Assembly (NCBI GenBank): GCA_964421955.1
Contig: CAYQYU010000003.1
Location: 1 to 64,000 of the forward strand
Length of the DNA stretch: 64,000 bases
Direction: 5' to 3'
From: an uncultured archaeon
GTDB lineage: Archaea; Nanohalarchaeota; Nanosalinia; Nanosalinales; Nanosalinaceae
Shown: piece by piece, positions 30,452-61,072 of the stretch
Position numbering within the stretch: the first letter of the stretch is position 1
Layout of the letters: every line of letters begins with the position of its first letter
Notes under the pieces: generated by a model
Seen by the model: the letters and a program-made list of their open reading frames with translations, nothing else
Told to the model about the DNA's origin: nothing
Databases searched by the model: none
Program-made: the position numbers and the translations under genes

Positions 30452-31276
30452 CTATCCCTCGTTCATGTAGACCGTCCTGATAGGGTACGGAATATCGATT
30501 CCCTCTTCATCGAAGCGGTCCTTGATCATCTGTGTGACCTCGCTCGACGCCTGGACGATGCCCGCACGTGAAGAGCTTGTCCAGCCTCTCAGCTTCAGGT
30601 TCACCGAGGAACCTCCCAGCTCGTCAACCAGGACCTGGGGCTCCGGCTCGTCCTCGACAGTCTCCGCTTCTTCAAGAACTTCGTGGGCAATATTCTTCGC
30701 CTGCTCTATATCATCTTCGTAGCTTAAGCCGACGATCACGTCGAAACGCCGGGCATCATAAGCAGTATAGTTTATCACGATATTGTTGTAGAGTACCGAG
30801 TTCGGAACTATTACCTCCCTGCCGTCAAAGGTCTTTATCTTCGACGCCCGTAGCTGGATGTCCTTGAGCGTGCCCTCCTCTCCGTTCACCTCTATCTGGT
30901 CACCGATCTTGAAAGGCCGGTTGACCAGGATGAGTATGCCCGAGATAAAGTTGGCGATCATGTCCTTAAGCGCGAACGAGATACCCAGGCCGATAAGACC
31001 TACTGCGGCACCGATCCCCGACAGCGGGACTCCAAATACTCCAAGTATTGCCACAAATGTTAGCGGAAAAATCGCGTAGGCCGTAACCTTTTTCGCAGAG
31101 GCCGCGGCGTGTTCATCTCCGCCGCGCCTCCTTACCGCTCTCTCGACCAGGATGTTTGAGAGCCTGTTGAGCCCCCATCCCATCCCGGCGACAACCAGAG
31201 CCATCATGACAGTTCTCGAGGTAATGTTGTACGAGTTAAGAAATGCAACTGCCTCTGCGACAAGCTCCGGGGACAT
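30452..31276 (-). CDS. mscS: Small-conductance mechanosensitive channel
   Basis: GISFALKDMIANFISG..RPFKIGDQI, VIVPNS, IDIPYP. Confidence 0.93.
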   Translation of the reverse strand: MSPELVAEAVAFLNSYNITSRTVMMALVVAGMGWGLNRLSNILVERAVRRRGGDEHAAASAKKVTAYAIFPLTFVAILGVFGVPLSGIGAAVGLIGLGISFALKDMIANFISGILILVNRPFKIGDQIEVNGEEGTLKDIQLRASKIKTFDGREVIVPNSVLYNNIVINYTAYDARRFDVIVGLSYEDDIEQAKNIAHEVLEEAETVEDEPEPQVLVDELGGSSVNLKLRGWTSSSRAGIVQASSEVTQMIKDRFDEEGIDIPYPIRTVYMNEG

Positions 31277-45971: not shown

Positions 45972-46313
45972 ATGAGATTCGAGGCCGAGGTTATAGCCGA
46001 AGACTTGCTGCCCGCGGTCAGAAGCATTCTCGCATCAAGGCTCCACGACGACTACGGCTTCACGCAGGAGGAGATAGCGGCGAGGCTAGAAATTACACAG
46101 CCAGCGGTTTCACAGTACCTTGGACAGACCCGGGCAGATCAGGAAGTAATCGAGAAGCTGCAGGACGACCCGCAGGTCGATATTTTACTCGACGACATCA
46201 CCTCGCTCGTGGCGAAGGATAAAGACTTCGCGAACGAGATCGGCCAGCTGATCGATACTGTTAGAGACAAGGGAATCCTGAAGGAACGGTTTGAAGGCAC
46301 GAGAAAGATCTAG
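45972..46313 (+). CDS. HTH transcriptional regulator
   Basis: LPAVRSILA..L...GFTQEEIAARLEITQPAVSQYL. Confidence 0.88.
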   Translation: MRFEAEVIAEDLLPAVRSILASRLHDDYGFTQEEIAARLEITQPAVSQYLGQTRADQEVIEKLQDDPQVDILLDDITSLVAKDKDFANEIGQLIDTVRDKGILKERFEGTRKI

Positions 46314-48358
46314 TAATCCTTGAAGCCGTCCCACTCGAACTCTTCGGCCTCCTCTTCACCGGTCATTGTCCTGATCCTTGCCATAATATCGTCGAGGCCC
46401 CGGATATCTATGTCCGAGTCAAAGAACTTGTCGAGATCCAGATTGTAATCATCGCTCCAGTATAGGAAGCCACCGACACCGCCAATTACAACCACGAACA
46501 GGCCGAAGCCTATCATCACCATTCTCCTGAGGTCTCGCCTGCTGTCGATCTTCTTTACATTTTCAAACGACTTCTCCGCGGCGCTGTAGTCCGCATCGAT
46601 ACCTTCAAGTGCTGAGGAAATCCTGTAGTATTCGCCGCTGTCACGCGCCTTCTGTGCATCTTCAACCTTCTGTTTAAAGCTTGAGAAGTTGGACTCAAAG
46701 CGCTGTTTAAGGTCGTCGCCCCAGCCATCCTTGTTGCTGGAAAAATCGCTCTGGAGCTTGCTAAGCTTCTCCTCGTACGTGGAGAGGTTTGCCTCAAGCT
46801 CCTGCTGCTGGTCCTGGTTCGCCTCGACCACAAGCGGGAAGCTCTTGGAGATCTCCGGGTAGGAGAGTGATACGGTAACATCGTATTCTCCGAGGTCCCC
46901 GTCATCGGTCTCTACCCCGAATCCCAGGGTCAAAGTATCTCCCGGCTCCATGTCGCTGACCTTCGAGGAGTCAGAAACAACTCCTTCCGCCGCGACGCTC
47001 AGGTTGGTCTCGTCGATGAAGATATCGCCGGTGTTCTCAAGTGTCACGTCAAAGCTCTCGGAGTCGCCCGCAGTGACAGAAAGATTTGAGGGCGGCGCCA
47101 GGCTTATCTCGGGCGTCGCATCCGGATCATAGGTGAAATCTATCGTCTCTGGATCACTCCATCTACCCGCGTTGTCCTTTGCACGTATGTATATTGTCTG
47201 CTCGCCCTCATCAAGGCCAGAAACGCTGGCCGAGAATTCGCCCTCGCTGTCGCTAACGTTCACCGTGTTACCGTCTCCTTCGTCTACTGAGGATTCGTAG
47301 AAGTATTCCAGTTTATCAATACCTGAAACGTCGGTGGCGGTAAACTCTACGGGGAAGTCACTGTTTACAGTACTTCCTGGTATAGAAAGGTCGAAAAGGG
47401 ATGGCGGGCTGCCGTCGAAGAAGTAGGTCTCAGTATCGCTTTCCTTGCAGTTGCCGGCCTGGTCACACATTTCAACGTAAATATCGGTCTCTGTGTCCGA
47501 GTAGTCATCGCCGTCTACTTCACAGGTGAAAGTGGTGTCGCCGCTGACCGACTGCGTCTCAGAGTCAATCTCATCGTCATTCCCATCGTAACACGTAACA
47601 GTTATGTCCGAACCCTCGTCCTCCTCACTCAGCTCGACCTCGAAATCGTACTCGTCGTCCTCGTCAAGCAGGATGTACTCCTCATCAGGAAGATCAGGTG
47701 AAGTGTCGCCGTCGTAAGAGGTGTCGACAGTGAAGTCCCAGGAACCTGTCTTCTTGTTCCCGGCCTTGTCAAATATGCTGTAATCAACAGTATAGGTTTC
47801 ATCGTTCAGGTCTTCAAGATCCAGGCTCTCGCCGACGGTCGAGTCCTCATTATCGTCTTCCGAATCCGTCACATTCAGGAAAGTGTAGTTGACCCCTGCG
47901 TCACCGTTATCAGAGGTGTCGACAGAAACCGTCGGATCGGTCTCTGAGGTGTACCCTGTAGGGGATTTGGAATCCAGCTGTGGCTTCTGGGTGTCGAAAA
48001 CTACGTCGGTTATCTCAGCGCTTCCATCGGAGTTGTTGGCTTTAAAATCATAAGTACCGTCTCCCTTGCTGGTTGTCTCGTAGGTGTAGAAGTTGTTCGT
48101 ACCCGAGGTTTCGTTGCTCAGGGAGGTGTAGTTCGATTCATCCGAGTTCTTTATCCAGAAATGAACGTATCCGGCGGTGCTCTCGGTCACGTTTAATGTA
48201 ACGTCGTTGGTTCCGAATATCTGGCCATCGGAGCTCGGGTTGTTCCAGCTCGGCGAGGCCGCCGAAAACCCGGCTACAAGGACTGCGGTTGTGGCCAGTA
48301 GAAGTACTTTAAAAACCGTGTTTCTTCTTTTCGAGAACACTGTGAAGCAATTCCTCAC
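46310..48358 (-). CDS. Cell-surface protein with Ig-like repeats, coiled coil and C-terminal TM anchor
   Basis: Signal peptide, D.AGN Ig-like motifs, LENTG CARDB-like segment, C-terminal TM helix. Confidence 0.8.
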   Translation of the reverse strand: MRNCFTVFSKRRNTVFKVLLLATTAVLVAGFSAASPSWNNPSSDGQIFGTNDVTLNVTESTAGYVHFWIKNSDESNYTSLSNETSGTNNFYTYETTSKGDGTYDFKANNSDGSAEITDVVFDTQKPQLDSKSPTGYTSETDPTVSVDTSDNGDAGVNYTFLNVTDSEDDNEDSTVGESLDLEDLNDETYTVDYSIFDKAGNKKTGSWDFTVDTSYDGDTSPDLPDEEYILLDEDDEYDFEVELSEEDEGSDITVTCYDGNDDEIDSETQSVSGDTTFTCEVDGDDYSDTETDIYVEMCDQAGNCKESDTETYFFDGSPPSLFDLSIPGSTVNSDFPVEFTATDVSGIDKLEYFYESSVDEGDGNTVNVSDSEGEFSASVSGLDEGEQTIYIRAKDNAGRWSDPETIDFTYDPDATPEISLAPPSNLSVTAGDSESFDVTLENTGDIFIDETNLSVAAEGVVSDSSKVSDMEPGDTLTLGFGVETDDGDLGEYDVTVSLSYPEISKSFPLVVEANQDQQQELEANLSTYEEKLSKLQSDFSSNKDGWGDDLKQRFESNFSSFKQKVEDAQKARDSGEYYRISSALEGIDADYSAAEKSFENVKKIDSRRDLRRMVMIGFGLFVVVIGGVGGFLYWSDDYNLDLDKFFDSDIDIRGLDDIMARIRTMTGEEEAEEFEWDGFKDY

Positions 48359-49886: not shown

Positions 49887-51323
49887 CTAAGAAGAATCTT
49901 TGAACAGGTCGCTATTAAATATTGCCAGAACGGGCAGCATCTCCAGCCTTCCCGCCAGCATTCCGATAACCCACGCGACCTTTATCAGAGGCGAGATAGA
50001 CACCATCTCCTCGCCCTGAATGTAGACAGGACCCATGTTGCCGATAGAGGAGACGCTCCCGGAGAGCGCGGCCATCACATTCATGTCTGACAGCATCAGC
50101 GTCCAGAGGGTCAGGACAAAGGTGAAGGCGACCCAGGTGAAGAAAAGTACTGCGATTGTCTGGACAGTCGACCGCTCCAGTATCTCCCCATCGATTTTGA
50201 CCTCGTTGATCGCGGTCTCCGGCAGAGAGTAAGCACGTATCCGGACTTTCAGAAGCTCTATAAGCGTCTTCAGTCGGAATATCTTGAGACCTCCTGACGT
50301 AGAACCCAGTGAACCCCCGACAAACATTATTCCTATGAATGCGGCCTGTAGCGCGACCGAGAGAGACATAAGCGACATGGTGGCGTAACCGGCCGAGGAG
50401 ATTACCGCGGCAGACTGGAAGGTGGAGTCCACCAGAACGCTCTTCAAACTGTGACCGCTCATGAAAAGTTCTATCCCGGTCAGGATCGCCATCAGACCAA
50501 AGATCTGGGCATACATCTTGAACTCGGAGTTACCTATCAGCGAACTGACATCGGTCCGGAGAACACGGTAAAGCAGCACGAAGTTGACTCCTGCAAGAAA
50601 CATGAAGAACGTCGTAGCAACCGTTATAGCGGTCGAATCAAAACCTCCTATGCTCGCAGCCATTGTCGAAAAACCTCCCGTCGATATCGCCGAAAAGGCG
50701 TGTAGTATTGCGTTGAAAGGAGTCATGCCCAGAGCCACATAGGTGCCAATTATTACCGCAGTCAGGAAGCCATAGACCTTCCAGAGTGCGAAAATCGACT
50801 TTGTGAGCGACGGTCTTATCGACCCGGAATCCGTCTTGTGGGCTTCTGCCGAGAAAAGTCTTCTCGAGACGCCGCCGGATTCACGGATAACCGCGATAAA
50901 GAATGTCAGTATGCCAAGACCTCCTATCCACTGCATGAAGGACCGCCAGAAAAGCAGTGAGCGCGGGAGATTTTCGGGCGCCAGGAACATCGAGATACCG
51001 GTAGTGGTCAGGCCAGCGGCCGACTCGAAGATCGCGTCCACGAGAACCATCTCCGTGAGTAATGGTATCGAACCAAAGATCAAAGCCAGTATCCACCCGA
51101 GAACCGTCGCGAACATGGCCTCCTTGACCGTGGGAGATCCTTTATCAACACCCATCTTGATTGCGTGGCCAAGCACAAGACAAGATATAGATGCCACTAT
51201 GAACCCGGACATGTAGAATATCGACTCCCTGTAGTAGACTGCGACGAGCAGGGGTAGGGCGATGGTGAACGCGAATACCTGGAGGAAGCTGCCTACAAAC
51301 CGGAGAATAACCGGGCTACGCAT
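49887..51323 (-). CDS. trkH: TrkH-family K+ uptake membrane protein
   Basis: FES.AGLTTTG, WRSFMQWIGGLG, STGGFS, GSTSGGLK, GNMGP, GRLE. True start ATG 51323. Confidence 0.95.
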   Translation of the reverse strand: MRSPVILRFVGSFLQVFAFTIALPLLVAVYYRESIFYMSGFIVASISCLVLGHAIKMGVDKGSPTVKEAMFATVLGWILALIFGSIPLLTEMVLVDAIFESAAGLTTTGISMFLAPENLPRSLLFWRSFMQWIGGLGILTFFIAVIRESGGVSRRLFSAEAHKTDSGSIRPSLTKSIFALWKVYGFLTAVIIGTYVALGMTPFNAILHAFSAISTGGFSTMAASIGGFDSTAITVATTFFMFLAGVNFVLLYRVLRTDVSSLIGNSEFKMYAQIFGLMAILTGIELFMSGHSLKSVLVDSTFQSAAVISSAGYATMSLMSLSVALQAAFIGIMFVGGSLGSTSGGLKIFRLKTLIELLKVRIRAYSLPETAINEVKIDGEILERSTVQTIAVLFFTWVAFTFVLTLWTLMLSDMNVMAALSGSVSSIGNMGPVYIQGEEMVSISPLIKVAWVIGMLAGRLEMLPVLAIFNSDLFKDSS

Positions 51324-51419
51324 GTATTCGAAGTTCCGGCTGCGGGAATAAAAAGCTCTCCAATTAAAAAAGTTTCTCGCCAAGACTAGGATGCTCGGGC
51401 AACTGAGCGGTGATTCATA

Positions 51420-51794
51420 ATGCAAGTTACTATCGGAACACAGGATGGCGAAACCTTCCAGACAGAACTGGAAGACTCTTCTCAACTCACAGGAAAGAAA
51501 ATAGGGGAAACCTTTGACGGCGGAATCATAGGCCTCAGCGGATACGAGCTGGAGATTACCGGTGGCAGCGACAGGCAGGGATTTCCCATGAGGAAGAGTA
51601 TAGAAGGTACTGCCCGGAGAAAAGTGCTGCTCGAGGAAGGCTCTGGCACCCGGGAAAAGGAGCAGGGAATGAGGCGCAGGAAATCCGTGCGCGGAAACAC
51701 TGTTTCGGACGAGATACAGCAGCTCAACACCACTGTAGCGGAAAAAGGCAGCAAATCCGTGGAAGACCTTCTTGGTGAAGAAGAGGAAGAATAA
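51420..51794 (+). CDS. rps6e: Ribosomal protein eS6
   Basis: LEITGGSD..GFPM, RRRKSVRGN.....I.QLN. Confidence 0.96.
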   Translation: MQVTIGTQDGETFQTELEDSSQLTGKKIGETFDGGIIGLSGYELEITGGSDRQGFPMRKSIEGTARRKVLLEEGSGTREKEQGMRRRKSVRGNTVSDEIQQLNTTVAEKGSKSVEDLLGEEEEE

Positions 51795-52027
51795 TGCCGC
51801 ATTCCCGCAGAAACAGCGGATCCAGCAGGAACTACTACGGAACGACCAGTATGAAATTCTACATGTGGGCAAAGAGACAGTCGAGGAAAAAGGACAAGAT
51901 AGTTGATCAGATAGGCCAGTGCTACGGAACCGCAAGTGACAGAGCCCATTCACTGGCGGGGGACATCGGCAGTAAACTCGGGGACAAAACGGATATTGGG
52001 GAATTGCTCTCAGGGCAGGAAAAATAA
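51794..52027 (+). CDS. Small hypothetical protein with basic N-terminal half
   Basis: 77-aa ORF that fills the gap between rps6e (TAATG overlap) and eif2g. Confidence 0.5.
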   Translation: MPHSRRNSGSSRNYYGTTSMKFYMWAKRQSRKKDKIVDQIGQCYGTASDRAHSLAGDIGSKLGDKTDIGELLSGQEK

Positions 52028-52028
52028 G

Positions 52029-53216
52029 ATGACCGAAGGAATACCAGAGGCAAACATCGGGCTTGTAGGCCATGTCGACCACGGGAAGACCACGCTCACA
52101 CAGGCACTTTCGGGTAAGTGGACTGACGAGCACTCGGAAGAGTTGAGAAAGGGGATCACGATAAGGATAGGATACGCCGATATAACATACTATGACGATG
52201 ACGGGGACCTCAATGTTGATGGAGACGGCGACGAGGTTAGGACCGTCTCGCTTGTAGACGCACCGGGCCATGAGACCCTGATGGCAAACGTCCTCTCGGG
52301 CGCGGCAATAATGGACGGCGCCATACTTTTGATCGCGGCGGACGAGGACTGTCCGCAACCCCAGACACGGGAACACCTAGCTGCGCTGGACATCGCTGGC
52401 GTTGAAAATATTGTGATTGCCCAGAACAAGATTGACCTTGTCGACGAGGATCAGGTGCGTGAAAACCACGAGCAGATACAGGAGTTTGTATCCGGAACAG
52501 TCGCGGAAGAAGCACCCGTAATACCGATATCTGCACAGCACGGCGTCAACATCGATGCACTGCTCGAAGCCGTAGACGATGAAATACCCACGCCGGAGAG
52601 AGATTCTGAAGAGGAGCCAAGGATGCTTGTCGCCCGGTCATTCGACATCAACAAGCCCGGGACCTCCCCTGAAGATATCAGAGGCGGAGTAGTAGGGGGT
52701 AGCCTTATCCAGGGAGAGATAGAGGAAGGCGATGAAATCGAGCTCAGACCCGGTCCACGTATCGACAAGGAGTGGGAGCCTGTAGTCACGACAGTCGAGG
52801 GCATCATGCAGGGTTCAAAAGCCGCGGATAAAGGCACACCGGGAGGACTGCTTGCAATCGAAACCTCTCTGGATCCGTCTCTTGCAAAGTCGGACGGCCT
52901 CTCTGGCAACGTCCTCGGCAGGAAGGACGAACTTCCAGAGGTGACCCAGACAATAGAGATCGAGGTAGACCTCATGGACCGACTGGTCGGCGCGGAAGAC
53001 GAACAGGAGATCGAGAACATAAAGGAAAACGAGGCCCTGATGCTAAATGTCGGGACCGGAAAGTCCGCAGGAATCGTCACACAGGCAGGGAAGAATGTCC
53101 GCCTGGACCTGAAAGTGCCAGTGTGTGCAGAAGAAGATGATCGAGTCGCAATATCGCGCCAGATAGGCTCTCGATGGCGTTTAATCGGTCATGGGAAGAT
53201 AAGCTCGCTTGAATAA
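52029..53216 (+). CDS. eif2g: Translation initiation factor 2 gamma subunit
   Basis: GHVDHGKTT, GITIRIGY, DAPGHE, PQPQTREH, NKID, RSFDINKPG, RWRLIG. Confidence 0.97.
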   Translation: MTEGIPEANIGLVGHVDHGKTTLTQALSGKWTDEHSEELRKGITIRIGYADITYYDDDGDLNVDGDGDEVRTVSLVDAPGHETLMANVLSGAAIMDGAILLIAADEDCPQPQTREHLAALDIAGVENIVIAQNKIDLVDEDQVRENHEQIQEFVSGTVAEEAPVIPISAQHGVNIDALLEAVDDEIPTPERDSEEEPRMLVARSFDINKPGTSPEDIRGGVVGGSLIQGEIEEGDEIELRPGPRIDKEWEPVVTTVEGIMQGSKAADKGTPGGLLAIETSLDPSLAKSDGLSGNVLGRKDELPEVTQTIEIEVDLMDRLVGAEDEQEIENIKENEALMLNVGTGKSAGIVTQAGKNVRLDLKVPVCAEEDDRVAISRQIGSRWRLIGHGKISSLE

Positions 53217-53284
53217 GCCCCCTCATTTTTAAAGCCGAGTACCGTGATTACAACTTACTGTAACACCATCCGGTGGACCCTCAC

Positions 53285-54838
53285 ATGAGCTTCTTCAATC
53301 AACTCCTGACCCTTACCCAGGGCGGCGATGCCCTTGCAAGAGTCATACTTACACTCCTGATACTTCTATCAGGCCACCTGGGTGTCAAACTGCTCGGGAT
53401 TCTGGTAAGAAGGTTCTGGGTGGAGAAAGGGGACCTAAACAAGAAGCAGGTCGAGGAGCGGAACGATACTATACGACACCTGGGCTACGTACTTGACGCG
53501 GTAGTAATCGTCGCGGCACTGCTCTACCTCAACACAAACCTTACTTCAGCGTTCTCCACAGGGCTCGCAGAGTTTGTGCCCGACATGCTTTCTGCGATCC
53601 TTATCGGTCTGCTTGGCTTCATAGTGGTCAACGTAACGATAAAGGTGGGTGCTGACTTCCTGAGAACCATCGGGATCAGGAATTACTTCAGGGAGGTGGG
53701 TCTATCGGGGAGCGCTATCAACTTTGCATCCGTGCTTCTGAGAGGATTCCTGTACCTGCTAATCGCCCAGATCGCTCTCACCGAACTTGGGATAGGCGAG
53801 ACATTCATCGACAAACTCGTGACTGCCTCTTCCTGGGCCGCGGCATTCCTTATAGCCGCTCTGCTGTTCTACGGCTTCAAGGATCTTTTCCAGAACTTCG
53901 CCGCAGGTATATACCTGAAGAACTCGCAGCAGGTGAGGCCCGGCGAACAGGTCAACCTTGAACAGGGAAAAGGCGAGATCCGTGAGGTATCACTTTTCTC
54001 GACGACTATAGATACTGAAACAGGCTATACTCTTCTCACTCCAAATGCGAGAGTTATGGACTCGGAGATAAAGTTCAAGAGGACCAAGAGCGATATTGAC
54101 ACTCTGGAGGACATAAAGAGCTACTTCGTCGCTCAGCACCCTTCCTACTGCGGGCCGGCCTCCATGGAAATGGCGCTCGAAATATTCGGATACAGGCACA
54201 GCCAGGAAGAGATAGGTGAAAAAGCAGAAACCACCGAGGAAGAAGGAACCGACCGTGACAAGCTGATGGAAGCAGTGGAAGAAATGACGGAGGAAGAGGT
54301 CAGCACCGCGTACGTGGAGTACGACAAGATCACTGATATAGCGGACGAGTTCAAGACCTGGTTCAACGACGGAGCAATGATAGTTCCAAACTTCTACAAG
54401 CCAGAGCTCTTCCCAGACGCAACAACAGGACACTATGTACTGTCTGTGGGTGTCGAGGGGGACGAGATACTGGTCATAGATCCCAGCGGCCACACCGGAA
54501 GCGGCGGAGTCTACTACGTCAACAAGGACAGGCTCTACGATGCGATGGCAGAGTTCGATCATTCACGCGGATACATAATAGTCGCGCCGGAGGGAACTAC
54601 GGCGCACTGGAGGATCAAGAACGACCTGATCTATAGCGACAGGACCTATTATGATGAGCTCTCGAAGACCCTGGAAGCACGGCTTAGAAAGATAATGAGA
54701 CAGGGGGGACTCCTGAAAAATGCAATGCCTTCATCTATAAAAGACTACATGGAGGACTGGAGGACTGGAGAACGGGTTACCCGGCTCTGGAAGGCCACGG
54801 AGGGGAAAGATGAAACTTCTGAAGATAACAAGGAATGA
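53285..54838 (+). CDS. MscS-like channel fused to a C-terminal C39-like (papain-fold) peptidase
   Basis: TM helices plus KDLFQNFAAG...VRPGE...TPN (MscS beta domain). Then Q..SYCGPAS (Cys codon 54149), GHYV (His 54431), VIDP (Asp 54479). Confidence 0.85.
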   Translation: MSFFNQLLTLTQGGDALARVILTLLILLSGHLGVKLLGILVRRFWVEKGDLNKKQVEERNDTIRHLGYVLDAVVIVAALLYLNTNLTSAFSTGLAEFVPDMLSAILIGLLGFIVVNVTIKVGADFLRTIGIRNYFREVGLSGSAINFASVLLRGFLYLLIAQIALTELGIGETFIDKLVTASSWAAAFLIAALLFYGFKDLFQNFAAGIYLKNSQQVRPGEQVNLEQGKGEIREVSLFSTTIDTETGYTLLTPNARVMDSEIKFKRTKSDIDTLEDIKSYFVAQHPSYCGPASMEMALEIFGYRHSQEEIGEKAETTEEEGTDRDKLMEAVEEMTEEEVSTAYVEYDKITDIADEFKTWFNDGAMIVPNFYKPELFPDATTGHYVLSVGVEGDEILVIDPSGHTGSGGVYYVNKDRLYDAMAEFDHSRGYIIVAPEGTTAHWRIKNDLIYSDRTYYDELSKTLEARLRKIMRQGGLLKNAMPSSIKDYMEDWRTGERVTRLWKATEGKDETSEDNKE

Positions 54839-55619
54839 CTTTGAAGAGTTCGACCCACTGTTTGAAGAGGTCGAAACGGTCAACGTTGAACAGGTCGCGC
54901 CGTCGGTCATAGACGGTGAGACAGATGTAAAGATCAATGGCGGCTCGATATCGGATTACGACGCAGTCTTCACGGATATACCCCAGAAAAACGCCGTCTT
55001 CGGACGCGTCCTGCTCGAAATGATAGAGGAGGAGGGTATCCGCACCAACCATCCCTCGACCGCATTCTTCATCATGTCGAAGAAGAACTATTTGCACCAT
55101 GTACTCCACCAGAAAGACATCGACGCTTCCGCAACAGTTGTGGTTGCATCGGATAAAGCCGGCCGGAACATCGAAGACCATCTCGAGACGCCGCTGATCG
55201 CGAGAAAATTCGACCAGCTTGTGGAAGTTGAAAGCCGGCTGATCGAGGACGAGGACACAATAGAGGAATTTGTCGGCGGCACCGAGTATCCCGACGAGTT
55301 CATAGTGTTCCAGGAGCTCGAGGATGGCGACAAGTACAGGTGCCTCTACGCCGGAGGCGAAATCATATCCCTGATGGACAGCAGCGACAGCTGGCAGCTC
55401 CAGGATGAAAAACTGAAGTACTCGTCCCTTTCACAGGAGCAGAAAAAAACCGTGGAGAAAGCCGCAAAGAACATTGGAACACCCGTAGCCGAGGTAGTCC
55501 TGCGCGGCGGGAAAGTCTTCGACGTGAACCCTAACCCCGATCTGGGCCAGTACACTGAAGTATCCGGCAAAAACGCCTACGAGGCCGTTGCACAGGTCCT
55601 GAAAGGTGATATAGGTTGA
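54810..55619 (+). CDS. Divergent RimK-like ATP-grasp protein
   Basis: YDAVF, N.PS......KK, PLIARK, FQE, YRC...GGEII, DVNPNP; several motifs degenerate. Confidence 0.75.
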   Translation: MKLLKITRNDFEEFDPLFEEVETVNVEQVAPSVIDGETDVKINGGSISDYDAVFTDIPQKNAVFGRVLLEMIEEEGIRTNHPSTAFFIMSKKNYLHHVLHQKDIDASATVVVASDKAGRNIEDHLETPLIARKFDQLVEVESRLIEDEDTIEEFVGGTEYPDEFIVFQELEDGDKYRCLYAGGEIISLMDSSDSWQLQDEKLKYSSLSQEQKKTVEKAAKNIGTPVAEVVLRGGKVFDVNPNPDLGQYTEVSGKNAYEAVAQVLKGDIG

Positions 55620-55671: not shown

Positions 55672-56559
55672 ATGAAAATGGCGATAGTGTACGGCGACAT
55701 ATCGACCACCCACCAGCTCATAATTGAAAGAGCGGAAGAGATTTTCGAGTCCGTGCTCGCAGCACCTGTTGACGGCCTGAAGTTTGCACATATTGACGGC
55801 GAGAACAAGGTAATCTACAAGGATACCGATCTGACCGAGTTCGACGCGGTCTACATAAGGACCGGGGACAAGGACAAGCTGTTCTCCGAGCACCTTACAG
55901 AGGTCCTGAATGAAGCCGGGGCAGTCACGCAGGCGGAGAACGACACCTATGCTTACGAGTCCAACAAGTTCTACTCGATGAAGGTACTGGCGGAAAACGG
56001 GGTCAAGGTTCCCGACAGCGTCTACACTCTTTCTCCTGACGCGGCAGTTGAGGCCGCGGAAAAGCTCGGCTACCCGATCATCATGAAAACTATCGGCGGG
56101 GGAGGCGGCCAGGGAGTAATGCGCGCGACCTCGGAAAACGAGCTGAAACCAGTTATGGATACCATGAAGGCCTTCGAACAGGACATCTGCCTCCAGGAGT
56201 ACAAAGAGCACGACGGCACTGACAACCGCATAATAGTCATCGGCGATCAACTGGTCGGCTACCAGCGCTCCAGCGCAGGGGACGAATGGAGGTCAAACAT
56301 ATCAGGCGGCGGAGACAGGAGAAAGGCAGAGATTACGGAAGAGATCGAAGAGTCCGCAACAAGATCCGCGAAAGCACTCGGATTCGATATCTGCGGCTGT
56401 GACATAATAGACATCGAGGACGGAGTTTACGTACTGGAGGTTAACGGAGCCTTCGGCCTTAACGAGGGAATAAATGATGTAGTCGGCGAGGACATAATTC
56501 TGCGTGTCGTCGAGGGAATGCACGAACTGGCAATTCAGCACCAGGAAGAGAAAAAATGA
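55672..56559 (+). CDS. RimK/LysX-family ATP-grasp amide ligase
   Basis: NKF....L...GV.VP, YPIIMK...GGGGQGV, LQEY, D.RIIVIG, WRSNISGGG, GCDII, LEVNG. Confidence 0.92.
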   Translation: MKMAIVYGDISTTHQLIIERAEEIFESVLAAPVDGLKFAHIDGENKVIYKDTDLTEFDAVYIRTGDKDKLFSEHLTEVLNEAGAVTQAENDTYAYESNKFYSMKVLAENGVKVPDSVYTLSPDAAVEAAEKLGYPIIMKTIGGGGGQGVMRATSENELKPVMDTMKAFEQDICLQEYKEHDGTDNRIIVIGDQLVGYQRSSAGDEWRSNISGGGDRRKAEITEEIEESATRSAKALGFDICGCDIIDIEDGVYVLEVNGAFGLNEGINDVVGEDIILRVVEGMHELAIQHQEEKK

Positions 56560-57608
56560 GAACCGGAGTCGAACTGGAGTACTGGGTTACAGACGGGAAC
56601 GGAAAGCTACGCTCCGCCGAAAAGATCGCCTCGCGACTGGATTTCGCCGAAAGAGAATTTGTCGAACCGGTACTTGAAATAAAAACGGAGCCACGAGAAA
56701 CAGTTTCTGGGTTGAGGAACGAGATCAAGAGGAAGCTCAAGAATGCCATAGAGGAGGCGGAAAGCCTCGATCTGAACATTGTCGGTCTGGGGACACCACT
56801 TCACTCGGGAGAGATCAAAACAGATGAATCGGCGAGATCAAGACTACAGGAGAAAATTGTGGGTGAACGGCTCAACTACGCCAAACACGTTGCGGGCACA
56901 CACTTCCACTTTGAACAGACCGATCCCGTGAAACAGATCAATCTCCTGACCGCGCTCGACCCCTCGCTCTCGCTTGTCAGCTCCTCACCCTACTACCGGG
57001 GCAAGAGAGTGGCAGACAATGCGAGAAACCAGATATACCGCTACAGGTGCTACGAGAAACTCTCAAAACACGGCCAGCTCTGGAACTATACCTCGAGCAG
57101 GGAAGAATGGGAGAACCGTATCGAGACGAGATTCAACGAGTTCAAGGATTTTGCGCAGGAAAAAGGGATAGATGGATCAAAGATAGAAGAGCACTTCCGC
57201 CCGGAGGACAGCATATGGATTCCCGTCAGGCTCAGGGAAAAGTTCGGAACAGTTGAATGGAGATCTCCTGATTCCGCTCTTCCCGGCCGGATAATCGAGT
57301 TGCTCGAAAAAATCAGGCATCTAGTTGAAAAAACTGGAGACAGCAGACTTGAGACAGGGAAACCCGGGATAGAACCGGGAAGAATAGTGGTGCCGGAGTT
57401 CACGGAACTTGACCGGCTCTCAAGAAACGCGATATATGATGGGCAGGAAAACGGTGAAGTCCGGAGATATCTCGAGGAACTAGGGTTTGAAAAACAGGAT
57501 TCAGTCTCCAGGGAAATTGATGCCGGGGCCAGCATAGATCGTGAGACCGCTAAAAAAATAAGACTGAAATACAGCAAAAAGCTCAAGCAGGACGTCAAAA
57601 AGCTCTAG
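56556..57608 (+). CDS. Glutamate--cysteine ligase family 2 (GCS2/YbdK-type carboxylate-amine ligase)
   Basis: GVELEYWV, EF....LEIKT, GTHFHF, SSPYY.G, W.PVRLR..FGTVEWR.PD. Confidence 0.88.
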   Translation: MRTGVELEYWVTDGNGKLRSAEKIASRLDFAEREFVEPVLEIKTEPRETVSGLRNEIKRKLKNAIEEAESLDLNIVGLGTPLHSGEIKTDESARSRLQEKIVGERLNYAKHVAGTHFHFEQTDPVKQINLLTALDPSLSLVSSSPYYRGKRVADNARNQIYRYRCYEKLSKHGQLWNYTSSREEWENRIETRFNEFKDFAQEKGIDGSKIEEHFRPEDSIWIPVRLREKFGTVEWRSPDSALPGRIIELLEKIRHLVEKTGDSRLETGKPGIEPGRIVVPEFTELDRLSRNAIYDGQENGEVRRYLEELGFEKQDSVSREIDAGASIDRETAKKIRLKYSKKLKQDVKKL

Positions 57609-60019: not shown

Positions 60020-61072
60020 ATGTCAGAAGATTTCATCCTGCCTCCAAAATTAGAGAAAGGAGACAAAATAGCAGTTATTGGAACCTCAAGCGGAGTACAA
60101 GAGTTCCCGAAAGTTCTTGAGATAGGAGTGAAGAGACTGGAAAACCGCTTCGGACTAAATCCCGTTGTTTATGATACAGCAAGGAAAAATACGGAGTATT
60201 TGAACAGTCACCCCGAGGAGAGAGCCGAAGAATTCATGCATGCCTTTGAAGACCCGGAAACAAAGGCAGTTATAGCCTTGACTGGAGGGGATGAACAGCT
60301 CAGAACACTGAAACACCTTGAGCCGGAAAGACTGAAGGATAATCCGACGAGGTTCTACGGCATCAGCGACAACACCAACATCCATATATACCTCTGGAGT
60401 CTCGGAATACAGAGCTTCTACGGCGGTCAAATACTTGACGATTTACTGGCTGAAGGAGAACTCGGAGAGTATAACTACAAATATCTAGAGAAAGCCTTCT
60501 TTGAGGATAGTCTTGGAGAACTCAAGCCCTCTGAAAAGTTCACTGACGAATTCTTTGATCTGTTCCAAGAAGAAATTGAGGATGACAGAAAACGTTTCGA
60601 CTCCCCAAACTGGGAGTTCTGGAACTTCGATGAAGAGGTTGAAGGCAGAGTTTTCGGAGGATGCTTCGAGATAATTAACTGGCAGATGGTAGTTCAGAGA
60701 TACTTACCTGAACCCAAAAAACTTGAAGACACAGTATTGGCGCTGGAAACTTCTGAGGAAGCGCCTTCAGGAACAGAGGTCAAGAGATGGCTCACATGTC
60801 TTGGAGAAAACGGGATTCTCGATAAATTCGCCGCAATAATTGTAGGAAGACCCCCGAGATCACCTCTTCACGGCGATAATAGGGGTGAAGAGGAGAAAAG
60901 AGAGTATCACAGAAACCAGAAGAAGATTATCAAGCAAGAAGTCGAAAGATACTGCCCAGACACTCCTATAGTCTTCGACATGGATTTCGGCCATACACAC
61001 CCTAAAATACCTCTAAAATCAGGGGGAAAAATCAGGATAGAGCCTGAAAACAGAGAGATAACCTCTCTCTGA
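60020..61072 (+). CDS. S66 peptidase (LD-carboxypeptidase/MccF family)
   Basis: PPKL.KGDKIAV, GGD, G.SD.T (Ser), LETSE (Glu), DFGHT.P (His). Confidence 0.92.
   Translation: MSEDFILPPKLEKGDKIAVIGTSSGVQEFPKVLEIGVKRLENRFGLNPVVYDTARKNTEYLNSHPEERAEEFMHAFEDPETKAVIALTGGDEQLRTLKHLEPERLKDNPTRFYGISDNTNIHIYLWSLGIQSFYGGQILDDLLAEGELGEYNYKYLEKAFFEDSLGELKPSEKFTDEFFDLFQEEIEDDRKRFDSPNWEFWNFDEEVEGRVFGGCFEIINWQMVVQRYLPEPKKLEDTVLALETSEEAPSGTEVKRWLTCLGENGILDKFAAIIVGRPPRSPLHGDNRGEEEKREYHRNQKKIIKQEVERYCPDTPIVFDMDFGHTHPKIPLKSGGKIRIEPENREITSL

Follow-up and report, generated by a model that had tools for sequence, protein, structure and literature searches.

We analysed a 64,000-nucleotide stretch of an uncultured nanohaloarchaeon of the Nanosalinaceae (positions 1 to 64,000 of contig CAYQYU010000003.1, assembly GCA_964421955.1), hereafter the window, in which the gene at 53285..54838 on the forward strand encodes a fusion of an MscS-type channel module and a C39-like peptidase. 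In this protein an MscS-type pore module is followed by a papain-fold domain, which stands in place of the alpha/beta cage domain, and then by a conserved helical tail; we are highly confident of this architecture and of its conservation across the phylum. Directly downstream lies a pair of RimK-type genes, which a preliminary description of the locus had not mentioned and which is its most informative feature. We tentatively favour, with somewhat less than even confidence, the interpretation that the fusion supplies the membrane part and the peptidase of a RimK-type ligase/peptidase module for glutamyl peptides.

The protein is 517 residues long from the ATG at 53285, the start that the window's own protein has in the database (P0002), and 521 residues long from the GTG at 53273 that opens the reading frame; residues are numbered here according to the 521-residue form. 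Pfam recognises the MscS beta domain (MS_channel_2nd, PF00924) at residues 204-266 (36.2 bits; cut-off 20.2) and Peptidase_C39_2 (PF13529) at residues 287-404 (36.1 bits; cut-off 24), and Peptidase_C39 (PF03412) also passes its threshold (25.5 bits; cut-off 22). The Pfam scan of the protein gave no match to the alpha/beta cage domain (MS_channel_3rd, PF21082), and the domain scan found no ABC transporter domain in it. An AlphaFold2 model was built from 120 homologues, namely the window's own protein and 119 relatives, which are the best 120 of 248 matches in a word-indexed search and the set on which our family counts rest. It presents five long helices, a TM3a/TM3b-like pair at 176-217, strands at 226-257, a helix at 271-284, an alpha/beta region from 285 to about 440 and a helical tail. 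The mean predicted local distance difference test score (pLDDT) is 83.2, while the predicted template modelling score is 0.48, and the arrangement of the domains is therefore uncertain. Pfam, AlphaFold2 and Foldseek thus bear out the earlier proposal that the MscS beta domain runs directly into a C39-like domain without the usual cage. A normal MscS was also said to exist separately at 30452, and indeed the protein of 274 residues encoded at 30452..31276 on the reverse strand is matched by all three MscS domains (MS_channel_1st, PF21088; MS_channel_2nd, PF00924, 80.2 bits; MS_channel_3rd, PF21082, 48.5 bits), the alpha/beta domain included.

The 119 relatives share 50-66% identity with the window's protein over 81-99% of its length, and the whole set ranges from 424 to 533 residues. 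Among these best 120 of 248 matches the named organisms are Nanohaloarchaea, including the cultured Candidatus Nanohalovita, Nanohalococcus and Nanohalobium. An exhaustive search of 50%-identity representatives returned 465 matches at E <=0.001, 55 of them at <=1e-30, with about 45 near-full-length cluster representatives at identities down to 24%. One distant representative (P0131) has 14 relatives, five of which carry a source name (two Diapherotrites, one Iainarchaeum and two plain 'archaeon'). A genome scan with one genome per species, using the close-relative alignment, recovered 51 fusion loci, all of nanohaloarchaeal type: 43 are nanohaloarchaeal by name, seven are labelled 'uncultured archaeon' or 'uncultured euryarchaeote', and one is labelled Colwellia polaris. 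Three of them lie on complete chromosomes (CP046106.1, CP012986.1 and NZ_CP180230.1). The preliminary description had left room for a sequencing artefact; the 119 full-length relatives and the 51 genome loci, three of them in complete genomes, exclude this. Some short matches resemble channel-only or peptidase-only halves (e.g. P0163, P0180 and P0183), and as such half-length matches are indistinguishable from contig-end fragments we make no claim on split forms. Existing automatic labels read either 'C39 family peptidase' or 'mechanosensitive ion channel domain-containing protein'. The locus titled 'Colwellia polaris' (L030, JBLGBK010000004.1), a metagenome-assembled genome, has its genes from TrkA to Rpb7 in the complete nanohaloarchaeal order and is probably mis-binned or mislabelled.

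The membrane part contains five hydrophobic helices (residues ~25-43, 70-88, 105-123, 151-169 and 182-200; 53345..53872, +), seen both as Kyte-Doolittle peaks and as helices of the AlphaFold2 model. Over the 120 homologues the mean number of Lys and Arg per loop alternates (0.1 / 7.3 / 0.3 / 3.5 / 0.3 / 4.2), which by the positive-inside rule places the N-terminus outside and the C-terminus inside, in the same sense as in MscS, and hence puts the peptidase domain in the cytoplasm beneath the pore. Should the MscS part assemble as a heptamer in the usual way, the peptidases at this position would form a ring. The helix equivalent to TM3a/TM3b of MscS spans residues 176-217 (53798..53923, +) according to the profile alignment to E. 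coli MscS, where the profile of the 120 homologues matches residues 93-175 (E ~1e-10); the same family profile also matches MscS chains of 171 residues deposited in the PDB as heptamers. Leu197 and Tyr200 align with the gate residues L105 and L109 of E. coli MscS, and Asn208 and Gly212 with N117 and G121, equivalences that were read by hand, with profile positions shifted by about +2 relative to the protein numbering, and may be off by one. D204, A210, G212, Y214 and L215 are invariant in the 120 sequences.

The beta domain (residues 204-266; 53882..54070, +), in which the motif LLTPNARVMD starts at residue 254, gives way to a conserved linker that takes the place of the MscS alpha/beta domain (residues 267-284; 54071..54124, +). 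This linker, which shows no match to PF21082 and forms the helix at 271-284, has an invariant T277, with R270, D274, L278 and E279 each kept in at least 90% of the 120 sequences. In a Foldseek search of the PDB the N-terminal half retrieved the MscS proteins of E. coli and H. pylori, YnaI, AtMSL10 and a 137-residue MscS of T. cruzi, with an MscS probability of 1.00. The membrane part most resembles the cage-less 'mini-MscS' forms. It shares with TcMscS (PDB 9bgq), the 171-residue heptamers (e.g. PDB 9sdg) and two proteins from our own searches (P0190 and P0201) a TM3-like pore helix with hydrophobic gate positions, the Asn and Gly of TM3b, the beta domain and the lack of an alpha/beta domain; unlike them, it has five transmembrane helices and an enzyme-plus-tail module of about 250 residues. 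According to its report, the cage-less TcMscS is a functional tension-gated channel (PMC12334622). P0190 and P0201 are stand-alone MscS-like proteins of about 185 residues, composed of PF05552 and PF00924 without the alpha/beta domain, and many further matches of about 175-195 residues in the exhaustive search of representatives resemble them. Proteins of this stand-alone type are the likely source of the channel module of the fusion.

The papain-fold domain occupies residues 285-440 (54125..54592, +); in the model, residues 290-450 mostly have pLDDT values above 90. Gln288 (codon 54134-54136), Cys293 (54149-54151), His387 (54431-54433) and Asp403 (54479-54481), all on the forward strand, form the catalytic tetrad; the Cys, His and Asp codons lie exactly where the preliminary description put them, and the Gln that it reported is present. 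Gln and Cys are separated as Q288-x4-C293 in most members, and His and Asp lie 16 residues apart. That the domain is papain-fold, also supposed earlier, follows from the profile matches above cut-off and from the superposition by Foldseek on the C39 peptidase domain of ComA (TMt 0.74-0.77); the peptidase domain of PCAT1 (TMt 0.69) and the pseudomurein endoisopeptidase PeiR (TMt 0.56) were retrieved as well. Overall, the structure that best matches the C-terminal half is that of Alr0975, a primitive phytochelatin synthase (E 2.4e-7, TMt 0.58-0.63), at a sequence identity of 20-22%. In the ESM Atlas, residues 270-521 recovered only clusters of C39_2 type, with scores of at most 0.90, which we treat as leads.

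The C-terminal tail (residues 441-521; 54593..54835, +) is helical and modelled with low confidence (pLDDT 57-65 at 450-500 and below 50 at 499-521, where the model is disordered). It is highly conserved to about residue 508, with W446, R447, L452, Y454, Y460, K465, R476, G478, W496 and W506 invariant in the 120 sequences, and its last 13 or so residues are acidic and variable. In a deep-branching clade (L024, L025, L028, L034, L036, L041, L042, L044 and L050) the fusion ends in '...K-L/I-D-E-F-T...', which may be a short linear motif; in other clades it ends in a loose acidic D/E-x-S/T-E/D-D/N tail. We also found a protein of 211 residues (P0192) with a lipoprotein-like N-terminus, a DJ-1/PfpI domain and a tail that matches positions 433-508 of the query at 39% identity. 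This may represent a second true host of the tail module, or a chimeric contig may have produced it.

Catalytic residues have been lost in a considerable part of the family. Of the 120 aligned sequences all have Asp403, 84 have Cys293, and 82 each have His387 and Gln288; the full Gln/Cys/His/Asp tetrad is kept in 77, and Gln, Cys or His is wanting in the other 43. The tetrad is also kept in 32 of 46 distant representatives that are near full length (the partial sequences P0123, P0158, P0163, P0164, P0165 and P0171 were dropped). A quick maximum-likelihood tree of 47 proteins encoded at the loci, made without the fragments L047 and L048, shows at least five changes between an intact and a non-intact tetrad. 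Among the 77 tetrad-intact members the mean pairwise identity is 0.67 in the papain domain and 0.51 in the channel part; the corresponding values for the tetrad-lost members are 0.52 and 0.57, and the identity of the tail is 0.64-0.68 in both groups. The losses imply that peptidase chemistry is not the invariant core function of the family. We read these patterns as those of an ancestral active enzyme under strong constraint, the window's copy included, that has turned repeatedly into a pseudo-enzyme with a structural role. Since the four residues are intact in the window's protein and the papain domain is the best-conserved region of the tetrad-intact members, the peptidase is very likely active in this organism.

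The gene that follows the fusion (54810..55619, +) overlaps its last 29 nucleotides and encodes a degenerate RimK paralogue of 269 residues, hereafter pseudo-RimK. It is related to the product of the next gene (BLASTP E 1e-10; hhalign probability 99.7%, E 1e-25), and in the hhalign alignment the Gly-rich loop, the WRSNIS motif and the equivalent of Asp244 are not kept. That next gene (55672..56559, +) encodes a RimK-family alpha-L-glutamate ligase of 295 residues with intact ATP-grasp residues, which is matched by TIGR00768 (151.1 bits; cut-off 143.4), by PF08443 (1.4e-34) and by solved RimK structures (E 1e-27). Its K139, the G143-G148 loop, D244, E256 and N258 are invariant in 47 sequences. 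A third gene (56556..57608, +), whose start overlaps the RimK stop by 4 nucleotides, encodes a carboxylate-amine ligase of the GCS2/YbdK type with 350 residues (PF04107, 42.5 bits; cut-off 21; NCBIfam matches fall below their cut-offs). GCS2 is present in the window and in 10 of the 51 loci, and is thus an accessory and not a core gene.

The order fusion, pseudo-RimK, RimK is found in all 48 nanohaloarchaeal-type loci that extend downstream, the remaining three of the 51 ending inside the fusion. On the other side the aIF2-gamma gene (51936..53216, +; Pfam GTP_EFTU and eIF2_C), which lies 68 nucleotides upstream of the fusion in the window, is just upstream on the same strand in 46 of the 51 loci, and the other five have no upstream sequence. 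The stop of one gene overlaps the start of the next in 38 of 44 fusion/pseudo-RimK pairs and in 26 of 42 pseudo-RimK/RimK pairs, counts that depend on a rule choosing the start codon nearest to the expected one. In a profile search with the pseudo-RimK alignment the named organisms were nanohaloarchaeal except for one 'Colwellia polaris' (among the best 120 of 215 matches). Adjacency and overlaps mark the fusion as the first gene of a translationally coupled operon with the RimK pair, and from these we infer that the three products function together. Complex prediction of fusion residues 270-521 with pseudo-RimK and RimK gave run scores of 0.00, 0.89 and 0.00 without controls, which speak neither for nor against binding. 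The idea that RimK acts on aIF2-gamma by way of a Glu at its C-terminus was considered and rejected for lack of support: the last residue is Glu in only 20 of 47 loci, and some tails were mis-framed. A eukaryotic ATP-grasp protein, CDC123, reportedly binds eIF2-gamma.

Downstream of RimK lies a variable 'amidoligase island' whose content differs among loci: GCS2, YheCD/TTL-like ATP-grasp genes (one to three, convergent) and a peptidase resembling MATCAP (DUF1704). The YheCD/TTL-like genes occur in about 23 loci (e.g. L008:9191-11405, L020:9167-10099 and L002:10230-11174) and the MATCAP-like gene in about 10; the window has neither. Loci of the Nanosalina type and of deep clades, 15 in number (L013:9278-10312 (-), L018, L022 and L036 among them), share a conserved protein of about 344 residues encoded convergently to RimK, for which we found no Pfam family save a weak, sub-threshold MobB-like match in one member. 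Neighbours were scored in 41 loci, after the fragments L047 and L048 and the loci with short downstream sequence (L001, L009, L017, L032, L033 and L039) had been dropped. The MATCAP-like gene was found in none of the 26 tetrad-intact loci versus 9 of the 15 tetrad-lost loci, and GCS2 in 11 of the former versus none of the latter. When phylogeny is considered, MATCAP tracks tetrad loss in about three contrasts and is contrary to it in none (sign test p 0.25), and GCS2 runs opposite to tetrad loss in two (sign test p 0.5). The association of peptidase state with neighbouring genes is therefore suggestive, not significant.

Comparable combinations are known from bacteria. One report describes the peptidase RimB, which binds RimK and removes the glutamates that RimK adds, and the rlo system of P. 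aeruginosa, in which the RimK-like ATP-grasp protein RloC, the peptidase RloA and the inner-membrane protein RloB, with a papain-fold inactive transglutaminase domain, act in one pathway controlling hypoosmotic tolerance (PMC11957051). The nanohaloarchaeal operon resembles both RimB-RimK and RloABC in that a RimK-type ATP-grasp ligase is encoded together with a peptidase, and it resembles rlo, which that source links to hypoosmotic tolerance, in having an inner-membrane protein with a papain-fold domain (PMC11957051). The differences are that RimB and RloA are retropepsins whereas the peptidase of the fusion is papain-fold, and that RloB bears an inactive, periplasmic transglutaminase-like domain on a body with seven transmembrane helices whereas the fusion bears an intact, cytoplasmic cysteine peptidase on an MscS body (PMC11957051). 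Moreover, the ligase of the fusion operon comes as an active/degenerate pair, unlike in either bacterial system. No retropepsin-type peptidase domain (RimB/RloA type) was found in the 12 neighbouring proteins scanned. A survey of amidoligases by Iyer and colleagues from 2009 is said to have included RimK-like ligases with membrane-bound papain-fold domains.

It is this precedent, taken together with the RimK pair, the papain-fold peptidase and the MscS body, that leads us to the ligase/peptidase module; as two genes of glutamate-ligase type always come next, the fusion looks like part of a peptide ligase/peptidase system and not like a lone safety valve. In such a module the ligase pair would make oligo-glutamate or some similar glutamyl peptide, either on a protein C-terminus or as a free peptide, and the tethered cytoplasmic peptidase would trim or turn over the glutamyl product at the membrane. 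The MscS-like pore could then vent the product or couple membrane tension to glutamyl turnover, and the resulting role might lie in glutamate or osmotic homeostasis. MscS-type channels release glutamate.

Several observations weigh against this interpretation. The 43 members without Gln, Cys or His show that the core function needs no such peptidase chemistry. The gene order TrkA, TrkH, aIF2-gamma, fusion, RimK pair, PIN, Rpb7, S24e is syntenic across Nanohaloarchaeota, so that adjacency alone could reflect general conservation of gene order; only the overlaps argue for an operon, and these hang on the choice of start codons. The structure that matches the peptidase domain best belongs to an enzyme of the phytochelatin-synthase kind, not to a peptidase specific for Glu, and the associations with MATCAP and GCS2 amount to only four phylogenetically independent contrasts. 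The analogy with rlo is also loose, the papain-fold domain of RloB being periplasmic and inactive while that of the fusion is cytoplasmic and intact (PMC11957051).

Four other explanations have to be set beside the RimK-type module. The fusion might be nothing more than an osmotic safety valve, its papain-fold domain serving mainly to replace the cage in structure or regulation by binding a ligand or partner, with catalysis incidental. The loss of the tetrad in 43 of the 120 members, through at least five separate changes on the tree, would suit such a valve, as would the invariance of Asp403, G412, Y414 and the tail throughout, the identity of 0.52 still found among tetrad-lost papain domains, and the good conservation of the pore helix and beta domain; some ABC exporters have inactive C39-like domains. 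We nonetheless think the valve unlikely, for the tetrad is kept in most close and distant relatives (77/120 and 32/46), the genome already has a canonical MscS, and where the tetrad is kept the papain domain is the most conserved part (0.67 versus 0.51), which points to selection on the active site. A second possibility is a gamma-glutamyl (thiol) peptide enzyme resembling primitive phytochelatin synthases, which would hydrolyse or transfer gamma-Glu-Cys made by GCS2 and ATP-grasp ligases at a membrane pore. The closest structure is that of Alr0975 with a glutathione acyl-enzyme (E 2.4e-7, TMt 0.63), and Alr0975 (PDB 2bu3 and 6th5) has the same catalytic arrangement as the fusion; the Phytochelatin model of Pfam (PF05023) aligns over positions 32-208 of its 210; the GCS2 gene overlaps the RimK stop in the window; and GCS2 occurs only where the Cys is intact (11/11 loci). 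Alr0975, however, is a soluble stand-alone enzyme and the domain of the fusion is membrane-tethered, with a Phytochelatin score of 21.6 bits that stays below the cut-off of 24.9. GCS2 is absent from 15 of the 26 tetrad-intact loci and hence not core, its association with the tetrad comes from few independent contrasts (p 0.5), and the ligase that never varies is of the RimK type, an alpha-glutamate ligase. A thiol-peptide enzyme therefore appears distinctly improbable to us.

Third, the fusion might be a tension-gated protease or a signalling device without any connection to the RimK genes: opening of the MscS part would expose or activate the peptidase towards a cytoplasmic or membrane protein. 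In its favour, an intact peptidase is linked covalently, through a short stretch that is highly conserved, to a mechanosensor-type module. That catalytic residues have so often been lost goes against it, and it leaves the strict coupling to the RimK pair unexplained; we allow it a slim chance. The preliminary description had named, besides a tension-gated protease, an analogue of peptidase-containing ABC transporters, in which the C39 domain would cut a double-glycine-type leader in the cytoplasm and a ribosomal peptide cargo would exit through the MscS-like pore. The C39 domains of ComA, PCAT1 and LahT do share with the fusion the papain fold, the Gln, Cys, His and Asp residues and a cytoplasmic place beside a membrane conduit: the cut-offs of both C39 models are passed, the domain superposes on the peptidase domains of ComA and PCAT1 (TMt 0.69-0.77), it lies on the cytoplasmic side of the pore, and the His-to-Asp spacing of 16 residues equals that of C39 peptidases. 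In the fusion, however, the C39-like domain is C-terminal to a channel, whereas in those three proteins it is N-terminal to an ABC exporter, and the fusion further differs from them in a Gln-to-Cys spacing one residue shorter and in the lack of nearby leader-peptide genes. The 64-kb window contains no small open reading frame with even a loose double-glycine-leader pattern, which says nothing of substrates encoded elsewhere; the genes conserved beside it code for ATP-grasp ligases rather than for precursors or immunity proteins; the pore comes without an ATPase or any other energy source; and catalytic residues are lost in more than a third of the relatives (43/120) with the rest of the protein kept. 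The proposal thus gained no positive support from the locus, is the least supported of the rivals, and seems very improbable. More generally, an archaeal C39-like protein is reported, in a paper from 2026, to have a non-peptidase activity, which cautions against reading chemistry in this fold family from the fold.

The RimK-type module could also take a more elaborate form, to which we would grant little probability: a mechano-enzymatic osmoregulator in which seven cysteine peptidases would sit under a cage-less pore, tension transmitted through linker and tail would set how fast the oligo-glutamate made by RimK is turned into free glutamate or let out, and the MATCAP-like peptidase would have taken over where the tetrad is lost, leaving the papain-fold domain as a scaffold.

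Other features of the window lie outside this system. An open reading frame of 829 residues at 49887-52376 on the reverse strand is the TrkH gene, with the Pfam match in the 504 residues next to the stop; the long frame, whose upstream part runs antisense into aIF2-gamma, is probably not real. A homologue of S66 LD-carboxypeptidases (Peptidase_S66 and S66C) is encoded at 60020-61072 on the forward strand, about 2.4 kb downstream of the ligase genes, in an archaeon that is nonetheless expected to have no murein. A protein of 682 residues with Big_13, CARDB and Y_Y_Y-like repeats, encoded at 46310-48358 on the reverse strand, is likely a surface protein.

The sequences themselves are already on record through automatic annotation, yet we found no published description of the MscS-peptidase fusion or of its operon: full-text literature searches, outside the supplementary files of nanohaloarchaeal genome papers, returned no MscS-peptidase fusion, no fusion operon and no nanohaloarchaeal RimK system. 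MscS relatives carry many kinds of added sensor domains; a channel with an enzyme in place of its cytoplasmic cage, of which we found no description, would couple a pore or tension sensor directly to peptide chemistry. The fusion stands in a fixed, tightly packed operon across many nanohaloarchaeal lineages and recurs in other DPANN lineages, and that genomes of about 1 Mb retain it suggests that its function is important. Catalytic residues have been lost repeatedly, perhaps as another peptidase took over, which makes the family a natural experiment on the origin of pseudo-enzymes, and the link to RimK provides a concrete entry into what RimK-type ligases do in archaea. If true, the mechano-enzymatic osmoregulator would give DPANN cells with reduced genomes a switch between a polymer that is osmotically silent and a pool of osmolyte or counter-ion.

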